64,000 nt of DNA, from NCBI RefSeq assembly GCF_044324875.1, contig NZ_CP172185.1; one strand, written 5' to 3'. The notes beneath the pieces are model-generated. The model searched no databases. It had not been told where the DNA came from and saw only the letters and a list, made by a program, of their open reading frames with translations. Shown here one piece after another: positions 3,163-22,670 of this stretch; position 1 is the stretch's first letter; the number at the start of each line of letters is the position of its first letter. Made by a program: the position numbers and the translations under genes. Source of the stretch: Escherichia coli. Lineage in GTDB: Bacteria > Pseudomonadota > Gammaproteobacteria > Enterobacterales > Enterobacteriaceae.

Positions 3163-4230
3163 ATGTCAAAACTGGTTCTGGAACAGGTGACCAAAACCTT
3201 CGGCGAATTCTATGCCGCCAGGGAAATCTCGTTCTGCGCCGAAGAGGGGGAGTTCGTGACCCTGCTTGGGCCGAGCGGCTGCGGTAAAACCACCCTGCTG
3301 AAAATGATCGGCGGTTTTCACCAGCCGGACAGCGGACGCATTCTGATTGGCGATAAAACGGTCAACGCCCTGCCGCCAGAAAAGCGCAATACCGCCATGT
3401 GTTTCCAGTCCTATGCGCTGTTTCCGCACCTCAACGTGGCACACAACATCTGCTTCGGCCTGAAGCAGAAAAAAGTCGCTATCAGTGAACAGCAGGCCCG
3501 GCTGGCGGAGGCGCTGAAGCAGGTGGGGCTGGAGAGCCAGCGCCTGAAAATGCCCGCCCAGCTCTCCGGCGGCCAGCAGCAGCGCGTGGCGCTGGCGCGG
3601 GCGATGATCACCCGCCCGGACGTGATCCTGTTCGACGAACCGCTCTCCAACCTTGATGCCAAGCTGCGCGAAAGCGTGCGTTTTGAAATCAAGGAACTCC
3701 AGCGGCAGTATCAGCTCACCTCGATCTACGTCACACACGACCAGGCGGAAGCGCTGGCGATGTCGGATAAAATTGTGGTGCTGAACGCCGGTAATGTTGA
3801 GCAAATAGGCAAACCGGAAGAGATTTACTACCGTCCGGCCAACCGCTTTGTGGCCGACTTTATCGGCGCGGCCAATATCGACACCGCGCAGGTCACGCCC
3901 TCAGAGCAGCCGGGCTATTACCGGGTACGCTGTGCCCTCGGCGAGTTTTATGTGCATTCCGTACAGCCGCCACGCACAGAGCACTGCTATATCTGCTGGC
4001 GACCGGAAGATGCGCAGTATGTCAGCCAGCCTCAGGCAGGCAACAACCACTTCTCCCTGACGCTCGACAAAATGGCCTTTATGGGCAACCTCACCGAAGC
4101 CTGGGGCCACAACGACAGCGGGTTATCGGTCCGCTTACATCTAATTAAAAAGCCGCCCGTCGCCCCCGGCGAGAGTGCCTGCTTCCGTCTGGCGGAAAAC
4201 GCCATCCATTTTCTGGAGCCGGTATCATGA
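3163..4230 (+). CDS. ABC transporter ATP-binding protein (PotA/MalK/UgpC-like)
   Basis: Walker [10 protein letters not shown], signature [14 protein letters not shown], Walker [13 protein letters not shown]-terminal regulatory-type domain; ATG 3163; stop overlaps next start (ATGA at 4227). Confidence 0.9.
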
Positions 4231-5093
4231 AAAACTGGCGCAATGATGCGGTCGCCTGGCTGCTGATGCTCAGCGGGCTGGGCACGATCCTACTACTGAT
4301 GGGATCGACGTTTTATGTGGTGATCGTCCAGAGCCTGGGCTGGTTCAACATCGAAGGCGACAGCAATTTCTCGCTGGAATACTGGCGCAATATGTTGCAG
4401 GACGAAGTGTTGCAAAGCGCCCTGTTCTACTCAGTGAAAGTGTCACTGCTGGGGTCGTTCGGCTCGGTGATTTTCGCCTATCCGCTGGCGCTGTGGCTGC
4501 GTAAACCGATGGCCTATAAAGAGGGCATTATCGCGGTGCTGCGTGCGCCGATGTTTATCCCCGGTCTGGTGGCGGCGTTTCTGTTCGTCAATATCGTCGC
4601 TTATCACGGCATTATCAACGAACTGCTGCTGGCGCTGGGGATTATCAGCGAGCCGCTGCGGATGCAGAACGATGACTTCGGCTGGGGCGTGGTTATCCTG
4701 CAAATCTGGAAAAACCTGCCCTTCGCCCTGATCCTCGTCGGCGGCGCAGTCAACGCCATCCGTAACGACGTGCTGGACGCCGCCAGCAATCTCGGTGCCA
4801 GCCGCTGGCGCAGTTTTACCGGCGTGGTGGTGCCGCTGACGCTGCCCGCCGTGCAGGTGACGCTGATTCTGGTATTTATCGGCGCGCTGGGCGACTTCGC
4901 CTTCTTCTCGGTGGCCGGGCCACGCAACACCTACTCGCTGGCGCGGCTGATGCAGGCCACCGCCATGGAGTACGGCGAGTGGAATAACGCGGCGGTGATT
5001 GCGGTGATCATTATGGTCACGGCGGCCATCTGCACGTTGCTGATTGCCACACTGATTACCCCGTTCGCCACCCGCAAAGGAGAGGTCAAATGA
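4227..5093 (+). CDS. ABC transporter permease subunit 1
   Basis: 288-aa hydrophobic multi-TM protein translationally coupled to the ATPase; stop overlaps start of the next permease. Confidence 0.85.
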   Translation: MKNWRNDAVAWLLMLSGLGTILLLMGSTFYVVIVQSLGWFNIEGDSNFSLEYWRNMLQDEVLQSALFYSVKVSLLGSFGSVIFAYPLALWLRKPMAYKEGIIAVLRAPMFIPGLVAAFLFVNIVAYHGIINELLLALGIISEPLRMQNDDFGWGVVILQIWKNLPFALILVGGAVNAIRNDVLDAASNLGASRWRSFTGVVVPLTLPAVQVTLILVFIGALGDFAFFSVAGPRNTYSLARLMQATAMEYGEWNNAAVIAVIIMVTAAICTLLIATLITPFATRKGEVK

Positions 5094-5146
5094 GCCACAC
5101 TGATTACCCCGTTCGCCACCCGCAAAGGAGAGGTCAAATGAGCCAC
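5051..5146. repeat. Perfect 48-bp tandem duplication (2 copies) spanning the permease1 stop / permease2 start
   Basis: actgattaccccgttcgccacccgcaaaggagaggtcaaatgagccac occurs at 5051-5098 and again at 5099-5146; read directly. Confidence 0.9.
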
Positions 5147-5974
5147 ACTGCCAACGGTTGCCGGGTGGTGACGATTTCGCTGATCTTCTTCGTGGTCGCT
5201 AATCTGATCTGGCTGGGCATGCCGTTCGGCATGGCGATCCTCTGGTCGCTGGTTGACCCGGCCCATCCGTGGAGCTACCCGGATATCTTCCCGCCCGTGC
5301 TGTCGTTCAGCCGCTGGCTGCTGGTATGGGAAAAGACTTCGCTTTCCGAGGCGCTGTTCAACAGCTACACCATTGCGCCTGCGGTAGCGGTCGCCAGCCT
5401 GCTGCTGTCGCTACCCACCGCGTATGCCTTCGGGCGCATGACCTTTCGCGGTAAGGCGGTGGCGGAGATGCTGACGCTGATCCCGCTGGTGATGCCGGGG
5501 ATGCTGATCGGGATTTTTTTCAGCGCCATGCTGATCAACCTCAATATCGACAACGCGTTTATCAGCATTGTTATCGGCCATACGGTACTGACGCTGCCCT
5601 ATTCGATCCGCATTATGTCTGCGGGGTTTAAGTCGGTGCCGCAGGATCTGATCGACGCCAGCCGCGACCTGGGCTCCGGCGCGTGGGACACCTTCTGCAA
5701 TGCCTATCTGCCGCTGCTGAAACCGAGCTTCCTGGCGGCGCTGATTTTTTGTCTGGTGCGAAGCCTGGAAGAGTTCAGCATCTCATACGTGCTGGGCGCG
5801 CCGGACTTTATCACCGTTCCGACCATTCTTTACTCTTTCCTTGGCTACTCCTTCGTCCGCCCGGATGCGGCGGTGGTGTCGATGATTCTGGTGATCCCCA
5901 ATGTCATCCTGATGGTCATCATTGAGAAGTTGCTGAAGGGGAACTATCTGTCGCAATCCACGGGAAAAGCCTGA
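5090..5974 (+). CDS. ABC transporter permease subunit 2 (N-terminus affected by 48-bp duplication; alternative start 5138)
   Basis: 294-aa hydrophobic ORF; first ATG at 5090 lies in duplication copy 1 and adds 16 residues (MSHTDYPVRHPQRRGQ) before the second MSHT at 5138. Confidence 0.8.
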   Translation: MSHTDYPVRHPQRRGQMSHTANGCRVVTISLIFFVVANLIWLGMPFGMAILWSLVDPAHPWSYPDIFPPVLSFSRWLLVWEKTSLSEALFNSYTIAPAVAVASLLLSLPTAYAFGRMTFRGKAVAEMLTLIPLVMPGMLIGIFFSAMLINLNIDNAFISIVIGHTVLTLPYSIRIMSAGFKSVPQDLIDASRDLGSGAWDTFCNAYLPLLKPSFLAALIFCLVRSLEEFSISYVLGAPDFITVPTILYSFLGYSFVRPDAAVVSMILVIPNVILMVIIEKLLKGNYLSQSTGKA

Positions 5975-9629: not shown

Positions 9630-10149
9630 GGGCAAATCCAATTCCGATTTCTCTGTTGAAGCGATGCATTTATATTTAAATATTCACCTGTCATTGAATT
9701 TTATTTGAAATAGGAGAAAATCTCCTCCTGTACTACAGATAACCCGGAATGTTCCTCGAAAGAAAATTCTGGCGCAGAATTCACGCCCGGTTCTGTTCAA
9801 CATCATGCAGGATAACGATACCGAAACGTTAAACTCTGGCAATTCTCGTGTTATACACAGGCAGGAGTGATTACTACGGTAAGAATTGCTGAAAAGGGGA
9901 GAACACTGAAGGCCTTATTCGCGAAGAATAAAGGAGACATTTCATGTAAATTATTATCAGAGATAACCTTCTCCAGGCGCTTTTGTTCGCTTCCTGAATT
10001 GCTACCTGATACATATTTACGGGATGCCAGCCTGGTGACTATAACTCCGAAAAGACCGATTATTGTATTGCGTGCATCCGGCATGTTTACAATGTACGCT
10101 GGTATCTAACGGAGTCTGACACAGATGCACGCAGGTGTATATTTTAACG

Positions 10150-15985: not shown

Positions 15986-17403
15986 TGAGCCAGACACTGT
16001 TTAATCAGCCGCTGAACGTTATTAATGTCGGTATCGAAATGTTCAGCGATGACATGAAAAAGCAGAATGTACCGGTAACCCAACTTGACTGGACACCGCC
16101 AGGCCAAGGAAACATACAAGTGGTAACGGCACTGGACGACATTGCCGCTTCACCACTGGCAGACAAAATTGCAGCTGCTAATCAGCTGGCGCTGGAACGC
16201 ATTATCCAGTCGCATCCTGTGCTAATTGGCTATGATCAGGCGATCAACGTCGTGCCGGGTATGACCCGTAACACTATCCTTCACGCCGGGCCGCCAATCC
16301 ACTGGGAAAAAATGTGCGGCGCAATGAAGGGCGCAGTAACCGGGGCTCTGGTATTTGAAGGACTGGCGAAAGATCTGGATGATGCCGCCGAACTAGCTGC
16401 TTCAGGTGAAATCATCTTCTCTCCGTGCCACGAACATGACTGTGTCGGCTCAATGGCGGGTGTCACGTCTGCATCGATGTTTATGCACATCGTCGAGAAC
16501 AAAACCTATGGAAACCGCGCATATACCAATATGAGCGAGCAGATGGCAAAGATCCTGCGTATGGGCGCTAACGACCAGAGCGTTATAGAGCGTCTTAACT
16601 GGATGCGAGATGTACTGGGACCTATGTTGCGCGATGCTATGAAGCTGGCGGGCGAAATCGATCTGCACTTGATGTTAGCGCAGGCGCTGCATATGGGCGA
16701 TGAGTGCCATAACCGCAACAACGCCGGGACGGCGCTGCTGATTCAGACGCTGACGCCGTGGATTATTCAGACTGGCTACCCTGTTGAGCAGCAGCGTGAG
16801 GTGTTCGAGTTTGTCCTCAGTAGTGATTACTTCTCAGGACCAACATGGATGGCAATGTGTAAAGCCGCAATGGACGCTGCGCACGGCATTGAATACAGCA
16901 CCGTGGTGACAACGATGGCACGCAATGGTGTTGAGTTCGGTCTTCGTATTAGCGGTTTGCCGGGCAAGTGGTTTACCGGTCCGGCGCAGCAGGTGATTGG
17001 GCCGATGTTTGCGGGCTATAAGCTAGAGGATTCCGGACGTGATATCGGTGATAGTGCAATTACCGAAACCTACGGCGTTGGCGGTTTCGCTATGGCGACG
17101 GCACCAGCTATTGTGTCACTGGTGGGCGGAACAGTTGAGGAAGCTATTGATTTCTCACGTAAAATGAGAGAAATCACTCTCGGAGAAAACCCCAACGTCA
17201 CCATTCCCCTGCTTGGTTTTATGGGCGTACCGACCGCTATCGATATTACGCGTGTAGGCAGTACAGGCATTCTGCCGGTAATTAACACAGCCATTGCGCA
17301 CAAAGACGCAGGGATCGGCATGATCGGCGCAGGAATTGTTCACCCGCCGTTCACTTGTTTTGAAAAGGCGATCCTCAACTGGCGTGACCACTACTGCCAA
17401 TAA
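15985..17403 (+). CDS. yahG: DUF1116-type protein (YahG-like)
   Basis: 472 aa; start ATGA-overlaps the yahF stop (15985); cluster synteny. Confidence 0.75.
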   Translation: MSQTLFNQPLNVINVGIEMFSDDMKKQNVPVTQLDWTPPGQGNIQVVTALDDIAASPLADKIAAANQLALERIIQSHPVLIGYDQAINVVPGMTRNTILHAGPPIHWEKMCGAMKGAVTGALVFEGLAKDLDDAAELAASGEIIFSPCHEHDCVGSMAGVTSASMFMHIVENKTYGNRAYTNMSEQMAKILRMGANDQSVIERLNWMRDVLGPMLRDAMKLAGEIDLHLMLAQALHMGDECHNRNNAGTALLIQTLTPWIIQTGYPVEQQREVFEFVLSSDYFSGPTWMAMCKAAMDAAHGIEYSTVVTTMARNGVEFGLRISGLPGKWFTGPAQQVIGPMFAGYKLEDSGRDIGDSAITETYGVGGFAMATAPAIVSLVGGTVEEAIDFSRKMREITLGENPNVTIPLLGFMGVPTAIDITRVGSTGILPVINTAIAHKDAGIGMIGAGIVHPPFTCFEKAILNWRDHYCQ

Positions 17404-17515
17404 CAATAACCGGGGCTAACGCAGTTAGCCCCACAGTAGCGGAAAACGTTGTTTACCTTCAGGGCTGGGCGATCTCCATGATCGCAAACGATGCTTAACC
17501 TGTTAAGGAGATTCC

Positions 17516-19066
17516 ATGAACAGCATAAAACTAGAATGGAAACGTGGTGACTGGGCGGCTTACTTTGGACTGATGACCAACAATCTGACTAACCTGCTGA
17601 CAATGATGGGTCTGCTAATTTTTGTCGTCGGAATCCCTACTGAAATTGTCTATGGACGCATTGCGCCTGCCTTTGGTCTTGCAGTGCTGGCGGCCAGTGT
17701 CTGCTACTCCTGGTTTGGTCTACAGATGGTGAAGAAAACCGGTCGTAGCGATGTAACGGCGCTGCCGTCTGGACCGAGCGCACCCTCAATCTTTACCGTG
17801 ACATTCCTGGTGCTGATGCCGGTTTATCAGCAAACCAAAGATGCCAACTTTGCTATTCAGATAGGATTGGTGTGGTGCTTTGTCGAAGCGTTGATCCTGG
17901 TCGGTGGCTCCTTCCTGGGTGAGACTATCCGCAAGATGATCCCGCGTACAGTGCTGCTTTCTTGTCTGTCCGGACTGGGGTTATTACTGCTGGCAATGAA
18001 CCCGATGCTGCAAGCGTTCGAAGCGCCGACAGTTTCTTTCATCGTCCTGTTATTGATCTTCATTAACTGGTTCGGTAAGAAGCCGATTTTTCCCCATATT
18101 CCTACCGGTTTGCTGTTGCTGATTGCTGGTACGTCCCTAGCGTGGATATCCGGTTTACAAAGCCCGGAAGACATTAAAGCGTCGATGTCTTCCTTCGGCT
18201 TCAACCCGCCGGAAATTCATGTAAGGAGCTTCCTGCAAGGTTTGCCGCACGCTCTGCCATATCTGGCTTCTGCAGTTCCTTTGGGCCTGGCTAACTACAT
18301 TTTTGACCTCGAGAACATTGAAAGTGCGCACGCGGCTGGTGATGAATACAACACCCGTAAGGTCATGATGGCGAACGGCTTTGCCTCCATGCTCGGTTGC
18401 ATGCTGGGTAATCCGTTCCCGGTAACCGTATATGTTGGGCATGCAGGCTGGAAAGCTATGGGCGCTAGTATCTGCTATACCCTCGCATCAGGCATCACTA
18501 TGTTTCTGGTGCCATTGTTTGGGTTGGGCGCGTTTATGCTCGCCATTATTCCCATGACTGCTATAGTGCCAATTCTGGTTTTTATCGGTGTGGTAACCGC
18601 CAATCAGGTGGTGCGAGAAACTCCTAAAGTCGAGGTTCCCGTCATTTTCATCTGTCTGTTCCCATGGGTCGCCAACTGGGCATTGACCATCGTTAACAGC
18701 GTGATGGGCGCAGCCGGAACATCCGCTGAGAAACTTGGTAGCGACCTGTTGCACAGCAAAGGCGTCTATTACGATGGACTGATGCATCTGGGAAGCGGTG
18801 CACCGCTGGCCAGCATGCTGTGGGGATGCATTGCTATCTTTGCCATTATGAATAAGCCGCTGCGCGGGGCGATAGCTGCATCCTTTGGAGCACTGTTATC
18901 GCTGTTTGGCGTGATTCACTCCCCAGCGGTTGGCTTTGCGGAAGGCAGCTCGATTGTGTTTGTTGTGGCCTACCTGATGATGCTTGCTATGTTTGCCCTC
19001 AAGCATGTTATTGATAGCCGTGAAACAGTGGCTGCGTCTGAGCAGGAAGAGACTAAAACGACCTGA
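17516..19066 (+). CDS. Integral membrane permease (putative nucleobase/solute transporter) in the yah cluster
   Basis: 516 aa, highly hydrophobic throughout; SD GGAG before ATG 17516; family assignment uncertain. Confidence 0.65.
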   Translation: MNSIKLEWKRGDWAAYFGLMTNNLTNLLTMMGLLIFVVGIPTEIVYGRIAPAFGLAVLAASVCYSWFGLQMVKKTGRSDVTALPSGPSAPSIFTVTFLVLMPVYQQTKDANFAIQIGLVWCFVEALILVGGSFLGETIRKMIPRTVLLSCLSGLGLLLLAMNPMLQAFEAPTVSFIVLLLIFINWFGKKPIFPHIPTGLLLLIAGTSLAWISGLQSPEDIKASMSSFGFNPPEIHVRSFLQGLPHALPYLASAVPLGLANYIFDLENIESAHAAGDEYNTRKVMMANGFASMLGCMLGNPFPVTVYVGHAGWKAMGASICYTLASGITMFLVPLFGLGAFMLAIIPMTAIVPILVFIGVVTANQVVRETPKVEVPVIFICLFPWVANWALTIVNSVMGAAGTSAEKLGSDLLHSKGVYYDGLMHLGSGAPLASMLWGCIAIFAIMNKPLRGAIAASFGALLSLFGVIHSPAVGFAEGSSIVFVVAYLMMLAMFALKHVIDSRETVAASEQEETKTT

Positions 19067-19092
19067 ATAGCCTGCAAACGGAAGATAATTCT

Positions 19093-20055
19093 ATGAAAGA
19101 ACTTGTGGTCGTTGCCATTGGTGGCAACAGCATTATCAAAGATAACGCCAGCCAGTCGATTGAGCATCAGGCGGAGGCGGTGAAGGCCGTCGCCGATACG
19201 GTTCTGGAAATGCTGGCTTCCGATTACGACATTGTGCTGACCCACGGCAACGGGCCGCAGGTCGGTCTGGATTTACGCCGCGCGGAGATAGCCCACGAGC
19301 GCGAAGGGCTACCCTTAACGCCGCTGGCGAACTGTGTGGCGGATACGCAAGGCGGCATTGGCTATCTGATCCAGCAGGCGCTGAACAACCGGCTGGCGCC
19401 TCACGGCGAGAAAAAAGCCGTCACCGTGGTGACTCAGGTGGAAGTGGATAAAAACGATCCGGGGTTTGTCCATCCCACCAAGCCCATCGGTGCATTCTTT
19501 AGTGAAAACCAGCGTGATGAACTACAAAAGGCAAACCCTGACTGGCGTTTTGTTGAAGATGCCGGACGGGGCTATCGCCGCGTGGTCGCCTCGCCGGAAC
19601 CGAAACGTATTGTCGAAGCACCTGCCATTAAGACTCTGATCCAGCAAGGCTTTGTGGTGATTGGCGCGGGCGGCGGTGGCATTCCGGTGGTGCGTACTGA
19701 CGCAGGGGATTACCAAAGCGTGGACGCGGTTATCGACAAAGATCTCTCTAGCGCGCTACTGGCTCGCGAAATTCACGCCGACATTCTGGTGATCACCACC
19801 GGCGTGGAAAAAGTGAGTATTCATTTTGGGAAACCCAACCAGCATGCACTGGATACAGTGGATGTCCTAACGATGGCCCGTTACATGCAGGAGGGTCACT
19901 TCCCGCCTGGGAGTATGTTACCGAAGATTCTTGCCAGTCTGGAGTTCCTGGAACGTGGAGGTAAAAGAGTGATTATCACCACGCCTGAATGCCTGTCCGC
20001 GGCACTGCGTGGCGAAACAGGCACCCATATTATCCACTCCCAAGAGGAGACGTAA
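19093..20055 (+). CDS. yahI: Carbamate kinase-like protein (YahI-like)
   Basis: 320 aa; amino-acid-kinase family motifs VVAIGGN, THGNGPQVG, GGGGIPVV typical of carbamate kinase. Confidence 0.85.
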   Translation: MKELVVVAIGGNSIIKDNASQSIEHQAEAVKAVADTVLEMLASDYDIVLTHGNGPQVGLDLRRAEIAHEREGLPLTPLANCVADTQGGIGYLIQQALNNRLAPHGEKKAVTVVTQVEVDKNDPGFVHPTKPIGAFFSENQRDELQKANPDWRFVEDAGRGYRRVVASPEPKRIVEAPAIKTLIQQGFVVIGAGGGGIPVVRTDAGDYQSVDAVIDKDLSSALLAREIHADILVITTGVEKVSIHFGKPNQHALDTVDVLTMARYMQEGHFPPGSMLPKILASLEFLERGGKRVIITTPECLSAALRGETGTHIIHSQEET

Positions 20056-20120
20056 ATTAAGGAAAGCGACCGCCGCCGTGAATTTTTAATGTTCATTGCA
20101 GATTATCGTGGGCTGGAAAT

Positions 20121-20183
20121 GATAACGGTTGGGGAGTTATTGTTTAGTTGCTAAAACAGAACGATAACCAACCCCAACCGTTC
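20121..20183. repeat. Long imperfect hairpin downstream of yahI
   Basis: aacggttgggg (20124-20134) pairs with ccccaaccgtt (20172-20182); arms extend imperfectly; no T-tract. Confidence 0.3.
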
Positions 20184-21198
20184 TCAATTTCGAATACTAT
20201 CTTTTCCATTTATCTCTGGATAGGCTTTGACGTCGTCCCTACTGAGTAAAATCCCCCTCATCATCCACCTAAAACCGATTGAAAACGGTCATTACTCTTG
20301 TGGCAAACAGGCTAAAGCCGTTCACGATGCTTCACTTCGCACCTTATCGTAATGAACAATACTGGTATTTCCAGTTCAGTTACGCCTACCCGTCTACCGC
20401 ATTCTTTGCCCTAACTACGGCATAGTTCGGGATTATATCAGCTGGCTAAAGCCTTATGCTCATCAGACCACATGACTCATTGAGCATGTTGAGGCGTTAC
20501 TCAAAATCTTGCCGATTAAACATATTTCGTAATTTCTTACCCTGCACTAACATATCATCAATACTATCGACAAACGTCAGTTGCAAATAGAGGTCACAGG
20601 GTCTGATTGATGTACTGTCAAGGCCGGGTCATGAAAGAGTTTGCCCTGTTCAAAGCTCATCGTTACGCACCGTCGTAGCCGATGCGGATACTCATCAATC
20701 CTCTGGATAGGTGAGGTGCGTAGTAGAGAAGCTCGGTCGTTTTTCGTTAATCTGAATCAGTACTGTCAACATATTCAAGTCGTTAATATGGATATGAATA
20801 CCTCCTTTGACCTAGAGGTACAGATGCACTACCCCCCAAGCTGTCAACGACGGATGAAAAGTGGCTCTTCCGCAACCTGGATGGAGATTTTCATGCCAGT
20901 GGACTCATGACCCTCTGCCTGAGTAGTTCAAATCCGGCTCGACCATACATCTGGCCTTTCAGCATTTTTAGCCAATTTACATGACTTTCGACCACCCCCC
21001 ATTATTCCAGCGACTGCTGATTGCCTCACATATAGCCGCAGCATCAGCTACCATCCTTGCAGCCACGCGCCGAAGTTACCACTTTCTCGTTGCTCTTTTA
21101 ACCACTCCCTCCATGGGTCCAGAAGTCCTCGCTCTGGAGGCCGGGTTGACATTTCAGGGAATGTTCCTGAACACACCCAGAGACTGACTGTCACACGT

Positions 21199-21252
21199 GA
21201 TAAGCCTGTAATACGGGATAAGCCTGTAATACGGGATAAGCCTGTAATACGG
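21199..21252. repeat. 18-bp tandem repeat x3 (gataagcctgtaatacgg)
   Basis: Three perfect units at 21199-21216, 21217-21234, 21235-21252 plus partial fourth (gata); read directly. Confidence 0.9.
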
Positions 21253-21414
21253 GATATTTCCCCTGAACCCACATCCCTTGTTATGTAGTGCCATAACCTC
21301 TGTCCAACGCTGATGCCGTTTTTGGCGGGTTTGCTGTTTAAGGCGTTCCGGACGACGGAGTGAACCGCCCCGGGAATCCTGGAGACTAAACTCCCTGAGA
21401 AAGAGGTAAACAGA

Positions 21415-21741
21415 ATGACTAAAAATACTCGTTTTTCCCCCGAAGTCCGTCAGAGGGCGATTCGTATGGTTCTGGAAAGTCAGGGCGAATATGACTCACA
21501 GTGGGCGGCAATTTGTTCCATTGCCCCAAAGATTGGCTGTACACCGGAGACTCTGCGTGTCTGGGTACGCCAGCATGAGCGGGATACCGGAGGCGGTGAT
21601 GGCGGGCTCACCACCGCTGAACGTCAGCGTCTGAAAGAGCTGGAACGTGAAAATCGTGAACTGCGCCGCAGTAACGATATCCTTCGCCAGGCTTCCGCTT
21701 ATTTTGCGAAGGCGGAGTTCGACCGCCTCTGGAAAAAGTGA
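21415..21741 (+). CDS. IS629-like transposase OrfA
   Basis: 108 aa, HTH plus leucine-zipper region ([29 protein letters not shown]). Confidence 0.85.
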
Positions 21742-22628
21742 TGCCACTGCTGGATAAGCTGCGTAAGCTGTACGGGGTCGGACCGGTATGCAGTGAACTA
21801 CATATTGCCCCGTCAACGTATTACCACTGTCAGCAACAGCGACATCATCCTTATAAACGCAGTGCCCGTGCGCAGCGCGATGACTGGCTGAAGAAAGAGA
21901 TACTGCGCGTATACGATGGGAATCATCAGGTATACGGTGTGCGTAAAGTCTGGCGTCAGTTGTTACGGGAAGGAATCAGGGTAGCCAGATGTACAGTGGC
22001 GCGCCTCATGGCGGTTATGGGACTTGCCGGTGTTCTCCGGGGTAAAAAGGTCCGCACTACCGTCAGCCGGAAAGCCGTTGCCGCAGGCGACCGCGTAAAC
22101 CGTCAGTTTGTGGCAGAACGTCCTGACCAGTTGTGGGTGGCTGATTTTACTTACGTCAGCACATGGGAGGGGGTCGTCTATGTGGCGTTCATCATTGATG
22201 TGTTTGCCGGATACATCGTGGGGTGGCGGGTCTCATCGTCTATGGAAACGACATTCGTGCTGGATGCTCTGGAGCAGGCGTTATGGGCCCGTCGACCGTC
22301 CGGCACAGTCCATCACAGTGATAAAGGTTCTCAGTATGTATCGCTGGCCTACACACAGCGGCTTAAGGAAGCCGGATTACTGGCATCAACAGGAAGTACT
22401 GGTGACTCGTATGACAACGCGATGGCGGAGAGCATCAATGGCCTTTACAAAGCGGAGGTAATACACCGTAAGAGCTGGAAAAACCGGACAGAAGTGGAGC
22501 TGGCCACACTCACGTGGGTGGACTGGTATAACAATCGACGATTGCTGGAAAGGCTGGGCCATATCCCACCGGCAGAAGCAGAAAAATCTTATTATGCTTC
22601 CATCGGAAACGATGATCTGGCAGCCTGA
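21738..22628 (+). CDS. IS629-like transposase OrfB (DDE integrase core)
   Basis: 296 aa overlapping orfA stop; [10 protein letters not shown]...HHSDKGSQY...[10 protein letters not shown]. Confidence 0.85.
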
Positions 22629-22670
22629 GTTCACAGATAAAACACTCTCCAGGAAACCCGGGGCGGTTCA

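Follow-up and report, generated by a model that had tools for sequence, protein, structure and literature searches.

A variable 18-bp tandem repeat within an ISEc38-like transposase pseudogene of Escherichia coli, best explained by neutral replication slippage

The window analysed here, a 64,000-nucleotide stretch of Escherichia coli DNA, carries a short tandem repeat (three exact 18-bp units, 21199..21252, minus strand) that is most probably (probability of about 0.9) a neutral variable-number tandem repeat (VNTR) produced by replication slippage in a decayed transposase gene of the ISL3 family related to that of ISEc38. The slippage mechanism and the order of one, two and three copies are suggested by a series of alleles together with the microhomology that frames the unit, and neutrality by the state of the gene. 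As far as could be seen, the tract is a new and undescribed example of a well-known type of feature: a literature search on ISEc38 returned mobile-element inventories and nothing on an 18-bp repeat.

An exact-match script found head-to-tail copies of GATAAGCCTGTAATACGG at 21199-21216, 21217-21234 and 21235-21252. GATA follows directly at 21253-21256, and the perfect period-18 tract amounts to 58 bp (...cacgt GATAAGCCTGTAATACGG GATAAGCCTGTAATACGG GATAAGCCTGTAATACGG GATA tttcccc...). Tandem Repeats Finder reports 21195-21256 with a period of 18, 3.4 copies, 97% matches and a score of 117. The perfect threefold repeat with a partial fourth copy, as described by a previous sequence-only reading of this DNA, is thus confirmed. 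The minus-strand translation is ...GSGEISRITGLSRITGLSRITGLSRVTVSLWV... and the codon-phase units are 21254..21237, 21236..21219 and 21218..21201, each encoding S-R-I-T-G-L. According to the sequence and the ISEc38 alignment, the partial fourth unit (21253..21256, minus strand; GATA on the plus strand, TATC in coding sense) serves as one arm of the microhomology flanking the unit. A degenerate neighbour unit (21183..21200, minus strand), with the coding sequence TCACGTGTGACAGTCAGT (S-R-V-T-V-S), is identical to the repeat unit at 11 of 18 positions. It is found in all alleles as well as in intact ISEc38, and it also lies behind a period-36 row of Tandem Repeats Finder. Its first 8 nt with their context (TATCACGT) match the unit start TATCCCGT at 7/8 positions. 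The script detected no exact copy of GATAAGCCTGTAATACGG on the opposite strand, and the unit is absent from the rest of the 64-kb window on both strands at up to 3 mismatches. The chance expectation is 0.03 matches, three being reached in none of 100 shuffles.

As short tandem repeats are prone to mis-assembly, a sequencing or assembly artefact was considered. The four complete E. coli chromosomes that carry an identical three-copy tract were assembled independently and come from China, Switzerland, Japan and Brazil, and more than 100 records, together with one metagenome contig, show a two-copy allele. An artefact can therefore be given virtually no credence.

The element that harbours the repeat was examined by translating the minus strand in shifting frames after removal of an IS629-like insertion. 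The translated fragments match Zn_ribbon_ISL3 (PF14690; E 2.7e-8, 34.5 bits, cut-off 25.5) and DDE_Tnp_ISL3 (PF01610; E 4e-17, 63.3 bits, cut-off 23), as well as the NCBIfam model transpos_ISL3 (NF033550; E 1.9e-47). The latter match reaches 162 bits; it stays below the 180-bit cut-off since the scored sequence is no more than a fragment. After frame repair, the translation shares 86-89% identity over 98% of its length with 539-aa proteins named 'ISL3-like element ISEc38 family transposase' by NCBI, and the DNA is about 90% identical to an intact ISEc38 copy. Given this DNA divergence of about 10%, the element is a relative of ISEc38 and not ISEc38 itself. A 662-bp query centred on this region matched E. 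coli genomes, every one of which has a frameshifted 'ISL3 family transposase' in its RefSeq annotation, on the opposite strand. Both the family domains and the close homology to a named member bear out the earlier proposal that the host is a disrupted ISL3-type element.

The element is an incomplete remnant that retains a single terminal inverted repeat. Its 5' part (22674..23486, minus strand) has frameshifts of -1 and +1 and contains Zn_ribbon_ISL3 and the first half of DDE_Tnp_ISL3. An IS1 beginning at 23489 has cost the element its left inverted repeat and about 100 bp of 5' sequence. The 3' part (20863..21360, minus strand) carries the right inverted repeat GGCTCTTCCGCAACCTGGATGG at 20863, a +2 indel and a deletion of about 350 bp internal to the ORF, with its junction at about 21077/21078. 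Between these lesions, a C4 run at 21260..21263 (minus strand; G4 in coding sense) replaces the run of three in intact ISEc38 (CAGGGGAAA vs CAGGGAAA in the alignment). This G3-to-G4 change is a +1 frameshift located 4 nt upstream of the repeat in coding sense, and it parts the frame of the repeat from that of the upstream transposase sequence. With respect to an intact ISEc38 (L004), the lesions thus comprise -1, +1, +1 and +2 indels, the deletion of about 350 bp and the missing 5' end. Adding the IS629-like insertion, no intact transposase reading frame is left. By its sequence, the transposase gene is dead several times over: truncated by IS1, frameshifted by four small indels, internally deleted and split by the IS629-like element.

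A short fragment of a different transposase (about 20628-20862) adjoins the right end of the ISL3 remnant. It is annotated as 'transposase, frameshifted, partial' in plasmid pAPEC3701 (L003, 2929-3136) and partly accounts for the roughly 3,000 genomes that gave partial matches of 90-95% to the first query.

Several features are shared with ISEc38, namely 86-89% protein and about 90% DNA identity, the Zn-ribbon and DDE domains, the right inverted repeat and the SRITGL codons. In contrast to ISEc38, the copy in the window is 5'-truncated, frameshifted four times, deleted for about 350 bp and split by the IS629-like element, and it carries the 18-bp block three times, whereas the block is single in all 120 intact relatives inspected.

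The homology places the repeat in the interior of this minus-strand pseudogene (about 20863-23486) and away from its terminus. On the DNA alignment, it lies about 340 bp inside the surviving right end of the remnant, corresponding to about nt 1019-1036 of the intact ISEc38 of about 1.72 kb, within the transposase ORF. The intact ISEc38 transposase reads ...ALHNKECSFREISRITGLSRVTVSRWVRSGTFPEMSTRPPKRGLLDPWREWLKEQ..., where SRITGL occupies aa 316-321, the ISEc38-family proteins having FREISRITGLSRVTVSRWV at that place. The minus strand of the window reads ...GSGEISRITGLSRITGLSRITGLSRVTVSLWVCSGTFPEMSTRPPERGLLDPWREWLKEQ..., which corresponds to two extra copies of the unit, or 12 extra codons. Beside small indels, this gain of 36 nt is the sole other difference from intact ISEc38 at the site of the repeat. 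The 18-bp unit comprises exactly six codons and keeps to the ancestral transposase frame. The sequence-only reading had held that the unit did not fit the 3-bp periodicity of a nearby coding sequence, which is an error: 18 is divisible by 3, and the unit fits the frame of the ancestral gene. Among 120 cluster representatives of ISEc38-type transposases, 114 have the single-copy EISRITGLSRVTVS and one has EISRVTGLSRVTVS; none has a doubled unit. The same reading had regarded membership of a conserved coding sequence as telling against a variable-number repeat. The unit does belong to a coding sequence that intact relatives conserve; here, however, the gene is a pseudogene and the extra copies are not conserved.

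These positions also bear on the possibility, raised earlier, that the tract forms part of the recognition region at or near an end of the ISL3 element. The repeat does lie within an ISL3-family element, but the ISEc38 alignment places it inside the ORF, far from both ends. Furthermore, the true end at 20863 (GGCTCTTCCGCAACCTGGATGG, matching the inverted repeats of ISEc38) has no similarity to the unit, and neither an inverted nor an additional copy of the unit exists within 3 mismatches in the 64-kb window. A role as a terminal region is consequently hardly conceivable.

The repeat falls in a segment that, judging from profile and structure comparisons, is a conserved helix-turn-helix (HTH). 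Many HTH families of Pfam match aa 302-338, all below threshold. A 104-aa stretch aligns to the N-terminal DNA-binding region of IstA of the IS21-family element IS5376 (PDB 8Q4D/8B4H) with an E value of about 2e-9, and this alignment pairs 'isritglsrvtvsrwv' with 'iarelgidrktvrkyi'. The twelve extra residues would lie in the turn and the recognition helix and would probably damage an active transposase. As a separate observation, ISEc38-type ISL3 transposases have an extra HTH module inside DDE_Tnp_ISL3 (about aa 303-400; window equivalent 21048-21290, minus strand). The Pfam match to DDE_Tnp_ISL3 in the ISEc38 transposase is split, profile positions 1-136 ending at aa 296. This module looks like a domain common to two families of insertion sequences, ISL3 and IS21.

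The copy number of the unit was determined with allele-specific queries in 5,426 complete E. coli genomes, matches of at least 99% identity being counted. The pseudogene lineage was found in 187 records (178 genomes). The three-copy query gave four records, all perfect and all chromosomal, from strains 135, GF43, TUM9803 and Br_112_kylling. The two-copy query gave 104 records, mostly large conjugative plasmids of the IncF/ColV type such as pAPEC-O2-ColV, and the one-copy query gave 84 (a few of them shortened; judging from an even sample, about 78 are full-length). No record of these genomes matched the four-copy query at this threshold. Added up, the alleles come to slightly more than 187, since the module carrying the pseudogene is present more than once in some records; thus, strain 135 has a three-copy and a one-copy locus on its chromosome and a one-copy locus on a plasmid.

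The module itself, which extends from a carbamate-kinase gene across the ISL3 remnant as far as IS1 (about 16166-23648), shows about 98.5-99.8% identity when chromosomal copies are compared with those on ColV-type IncF plasmids of avian-pathogenic E. coli. It is present on pAPEC-O2-ColV (NC_007675.1, L005). Its two-copy alleles predominate on plasmids and its one- and three-copy alleles on chromosomes, and some genomes have several copies of the module that differ from each other in repeat number.

A comparison of copy number across strains, which the sequence-only reading had proposed as a check, gave one, two or three units at a single orthologous locus. The order at this locus is carbamate kinase, ISL3 remnant, IS1A, IS256 fragment, sigma-like HTH gene and YadA-like gene. 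One copy is found in AR_0085 (L002), two in strains 104 and EC17CM2 (L010 and L011), and three in strain 135 (L001), in L007 to L009 and in the window. Apart from the copy number, L002, L010, L011 and L007 have no SNP across a flank of about 3 kb. As one-, two- and three-copy alleles are thus found in flanks with zero SNPs, the copy number changes at least as fast as point substitutions arise. The three-copy alleles stand on backgrounds that are 0-7 SNPs apart, and the flank of about 3 kb in the window is identical to that of Br_112_kylling. Head-to-tail units whose number differs at an orthologous locus with conserved flanks are what is found in VNTRs, and the suggestion of a slippage-prone variable-number repeat has therefore held up well.

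Beyond the complete E. coli genomes, the exact 36-nt pattern of two units had no match in the one-genome-per-species contigs of GTDB and was found in a single two-copy contig in metagenomes. The expansion thus looks confined to the pseudogene lineage associated with E. coli, although E. coli is thinly sampled in both collections. In a search for a duplication in intact ISEc38, the 12 records listed among 361 top records were all single-copy; in this search, one-copy loci aligned in two pieces score the same as a true match would.

The one-copy allele gives an indication of how the first duplication might have arisen. In coding sense it reads GGGGAAA TATCCCGTATTACAGGCT TATCACGTGTG. The arms on either side of the SRITGL block of the pseudogene lineage, TATCCCGT and TATCACGT, are 7/8 identical and 18 nt apart, whereas intact ISEc38 has TGTCGCGT as its second arm (6/8). 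By slipped-strand mispairing, a unit lying between short direct repeats becomes prone to being duplicated or deleted, and perfect tandem copies are then far more unstable, through events that are largely independent of RecA. Slipped-strand mispairing of tandem repeats has reportedly been treated by Levinson and Gutman in 1987 and by Bzymek and Lovett in 2001. Combining these elements, the following model can be drawn. The ancestral state would be a single block in the HTH segment ...EISRITGLSRVTVS..., as kept in intact ISEc38 and in the one-copy alleles. A misalignment between TATCCCGT and TATCACGT during replication would have duplicated the block, leading to the two-copy allele. The resulting perfect tandem of 36 bp could then slip again to give three copies, contraction being possible as well. 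The gene would already have been inactive, owing to the 5' truncation by IS1, the four frameshifts and the deletion of about 350 bp, when the units expanded. Because of this inactivity, no selection would act against the extra codons. That they are cost-free in a dead gene is also the simplest reason why extra units persist here and are unseen in 120 intact relatives. Nothing was found against this neutral slippage model. The few SNPs in the flanks are compatible with a single as well as a repeated origin of three copies, and with the two-copy alleles as intermediates as well as contractions.

The tract resembles the slippage-derived repeats used in VNTR/MLVA typing by its perfect head-to-tail units, its strain-variable copy number at an orthologous locus with invariant flanks and the microhomology that flanks the unit in the single-copy allele. 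It differs from them by its very small range (1-3 copies) and by being a multi-locus instead of a single-locus marker, because the mobile-element pseudogene is present in several copies per genome and also on plasmids.

No function of the tract itself is evident. The variation in copy number between otherwise identical loci, along with a short GTG-initiated ORF that spans the tract, could evoke a contingency or phase-variation switch that turns a gene on and off or alters a protein, for example the 74-aa product of the minus-strand ORF 21048-21272 (SRITGL three times). However, the 18-nt unit is six codons, and changes in copy number never shift the frame. The 74-aa ORF is a fragment of the transposase frame delimited by the frameshift 4 nt upstream of the repeat and by a stop that results from the deletion. 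When its product was searched for in a collection of 5.8 billion proteins, only one-copy fragments of the pseudogene lineage and ISEc38 were retrieved, and no protein with a doubled unit was seen. A scan for promoters and terminators gave nothing at the repeat, and no promoter-like site overlaps the tract. Like phase-variable simple-sequence contingency loci, the tract is a tandem repeat whose length is altered by slippage; unlike them, it has a unit length divisible by three, lies in an already inactivated gene and involves no promoter. A switch is thus very improbable.

The size of these direct 18-bp repeats is also iteron-like, and the module is carried by ColV-type IncF plasmids, so that the three 18-mers might be viewed as a regulatory or iteron-like DNA-binding array kept for a plasmid or island function. 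Against this, the unit is an ordinary coding sequence that occurs once in thousands of ISEc38 copies, and one-copy alleles are common at the orthologous locus; such an array would be reduced to one unit in about 40% of the records. No replication gene adjoins the tract in any annotated context; iterons lie next to a replication initiator gene or origin and are conserved as an array. Moreover, the 64-kb window contains no other copy of the unit, an Rfam search gave no match at the repeat, and single-strand folding of both strands revealed nothing unusual (z -0.94 and +0.87). Taken together, these data make a binding array extremely improbable.

More generally, the tract might have a selectable effect, either because the 74-aa HTH remnant (21048-21272, minus strand) is expressed with a lengthened DNA-binding helix or because a regulator or a transposase of a resident ISEc38 binds the array of 18-mers. 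If this were true, the copy-number alleles (two on ColV-type plasmids, one to three on chromosomes) would be under selection. Such an effect is very unlikely. In a more modest version, the tract would simply be a usable, fast-evolving marker for tracking the poultry-associated module.

The repeat is, as had been stated, really beside an IS629-like insertion: a 1310-bp element of the IS3 family (21361..22670, plus strand) is inserted in the pseudogene at a distance of 104 bp from the tract and is flanked by a 3-bp target duplication (gag, 21358-21360 and 22671-22673). Its boundaries were defined from the empty site in strain 135, as ...gacggag/TGAACCGCCCC...GGGGCGGTTCA/gagcgatg..., the slashes marking the junctions. 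The element is 99.8-99.9% identical to copies found elsewhere in E. coli. An ALIL pseudoknot (Rfam RF01497, 116 bits, E 1.5e-30) is located at 21696-21812, in the overlap of its orfA and orfB. This pseudoknot, typical of IS3 elements, is a programmed -1 frameshift signal. The junction between IS629 and the ISL3 remnant seen in the window was not found in the complete E. coli genomes, including the four three-copy ones. As these four genomes carry the expansion without the insertion, the two events are independent, and as the insertion is absent from all complete genomes, it is younger than the expansion. The comparison of genomes thus indicates that the IS629-like insertion is later than, and unrelated to, the expansion of the repeat.

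The biological weight of the tract is small, since it is a textbook case of slippage in DNA freed from selection. It could nevertheless provide a cheap discriminating marker in a module common to chromosomes of avian-associated E. coli and to ColV-type plasmids, a use complicated by the several copies of the module per genome. It also calls for caution in sequence scanning: a perfect tandem repeat without any ORF around it can be derived from coding sequence, and the test for such an origin is comparison with intact homologues, not local inspection of ORFs.

Other repeats and insertions were observed in the window. About 2.6 kb at 23649-26287 are absent from strain 135, AR_0085 and others, which go directly from IS1 sequence at 23648 to 26288. 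This segment encodes a 548-aa IstA-like ORF and a 332-aa IstB-like ORF with a Walker A motif (GPTGCGKS), and it appears to be an element of the IS21 family inserted into IS1. Repeats of 23/47 bp (26158-26280) lie at the istA-proximal end of this putative element; IS21-family elements have multiple terminal repeats at that end.

In a gene that relatives have annotated as a YadA-like or YadA C-terminal domain adhesin, a 99-bp unit is repeated in tandem (2.2 copies, 93% matches, 28405-28617). In strain 135 (L001; region 9947-9961), this gene has 198 additional bp, that is, two more units of 33 codons. Several of the retrieved relatives have an intact version of the gene in their annotation, others a frameshifted or partial one. 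This repeat is a second VNTR and may be of more biological relevance than the 18-bp tract.

Lastly, a perfect 48-bp tandem repeat (2.2 copies, 5046-5150) spans the stop/start overlap of two ORFs (4227-5093 and 5090-5974) encoding membrane proteins that resemble permeases of ABC transporters. Through this repeat, the C-terminal codons, ribosome-binding site and start codon at the gene junction are present in duplicate.
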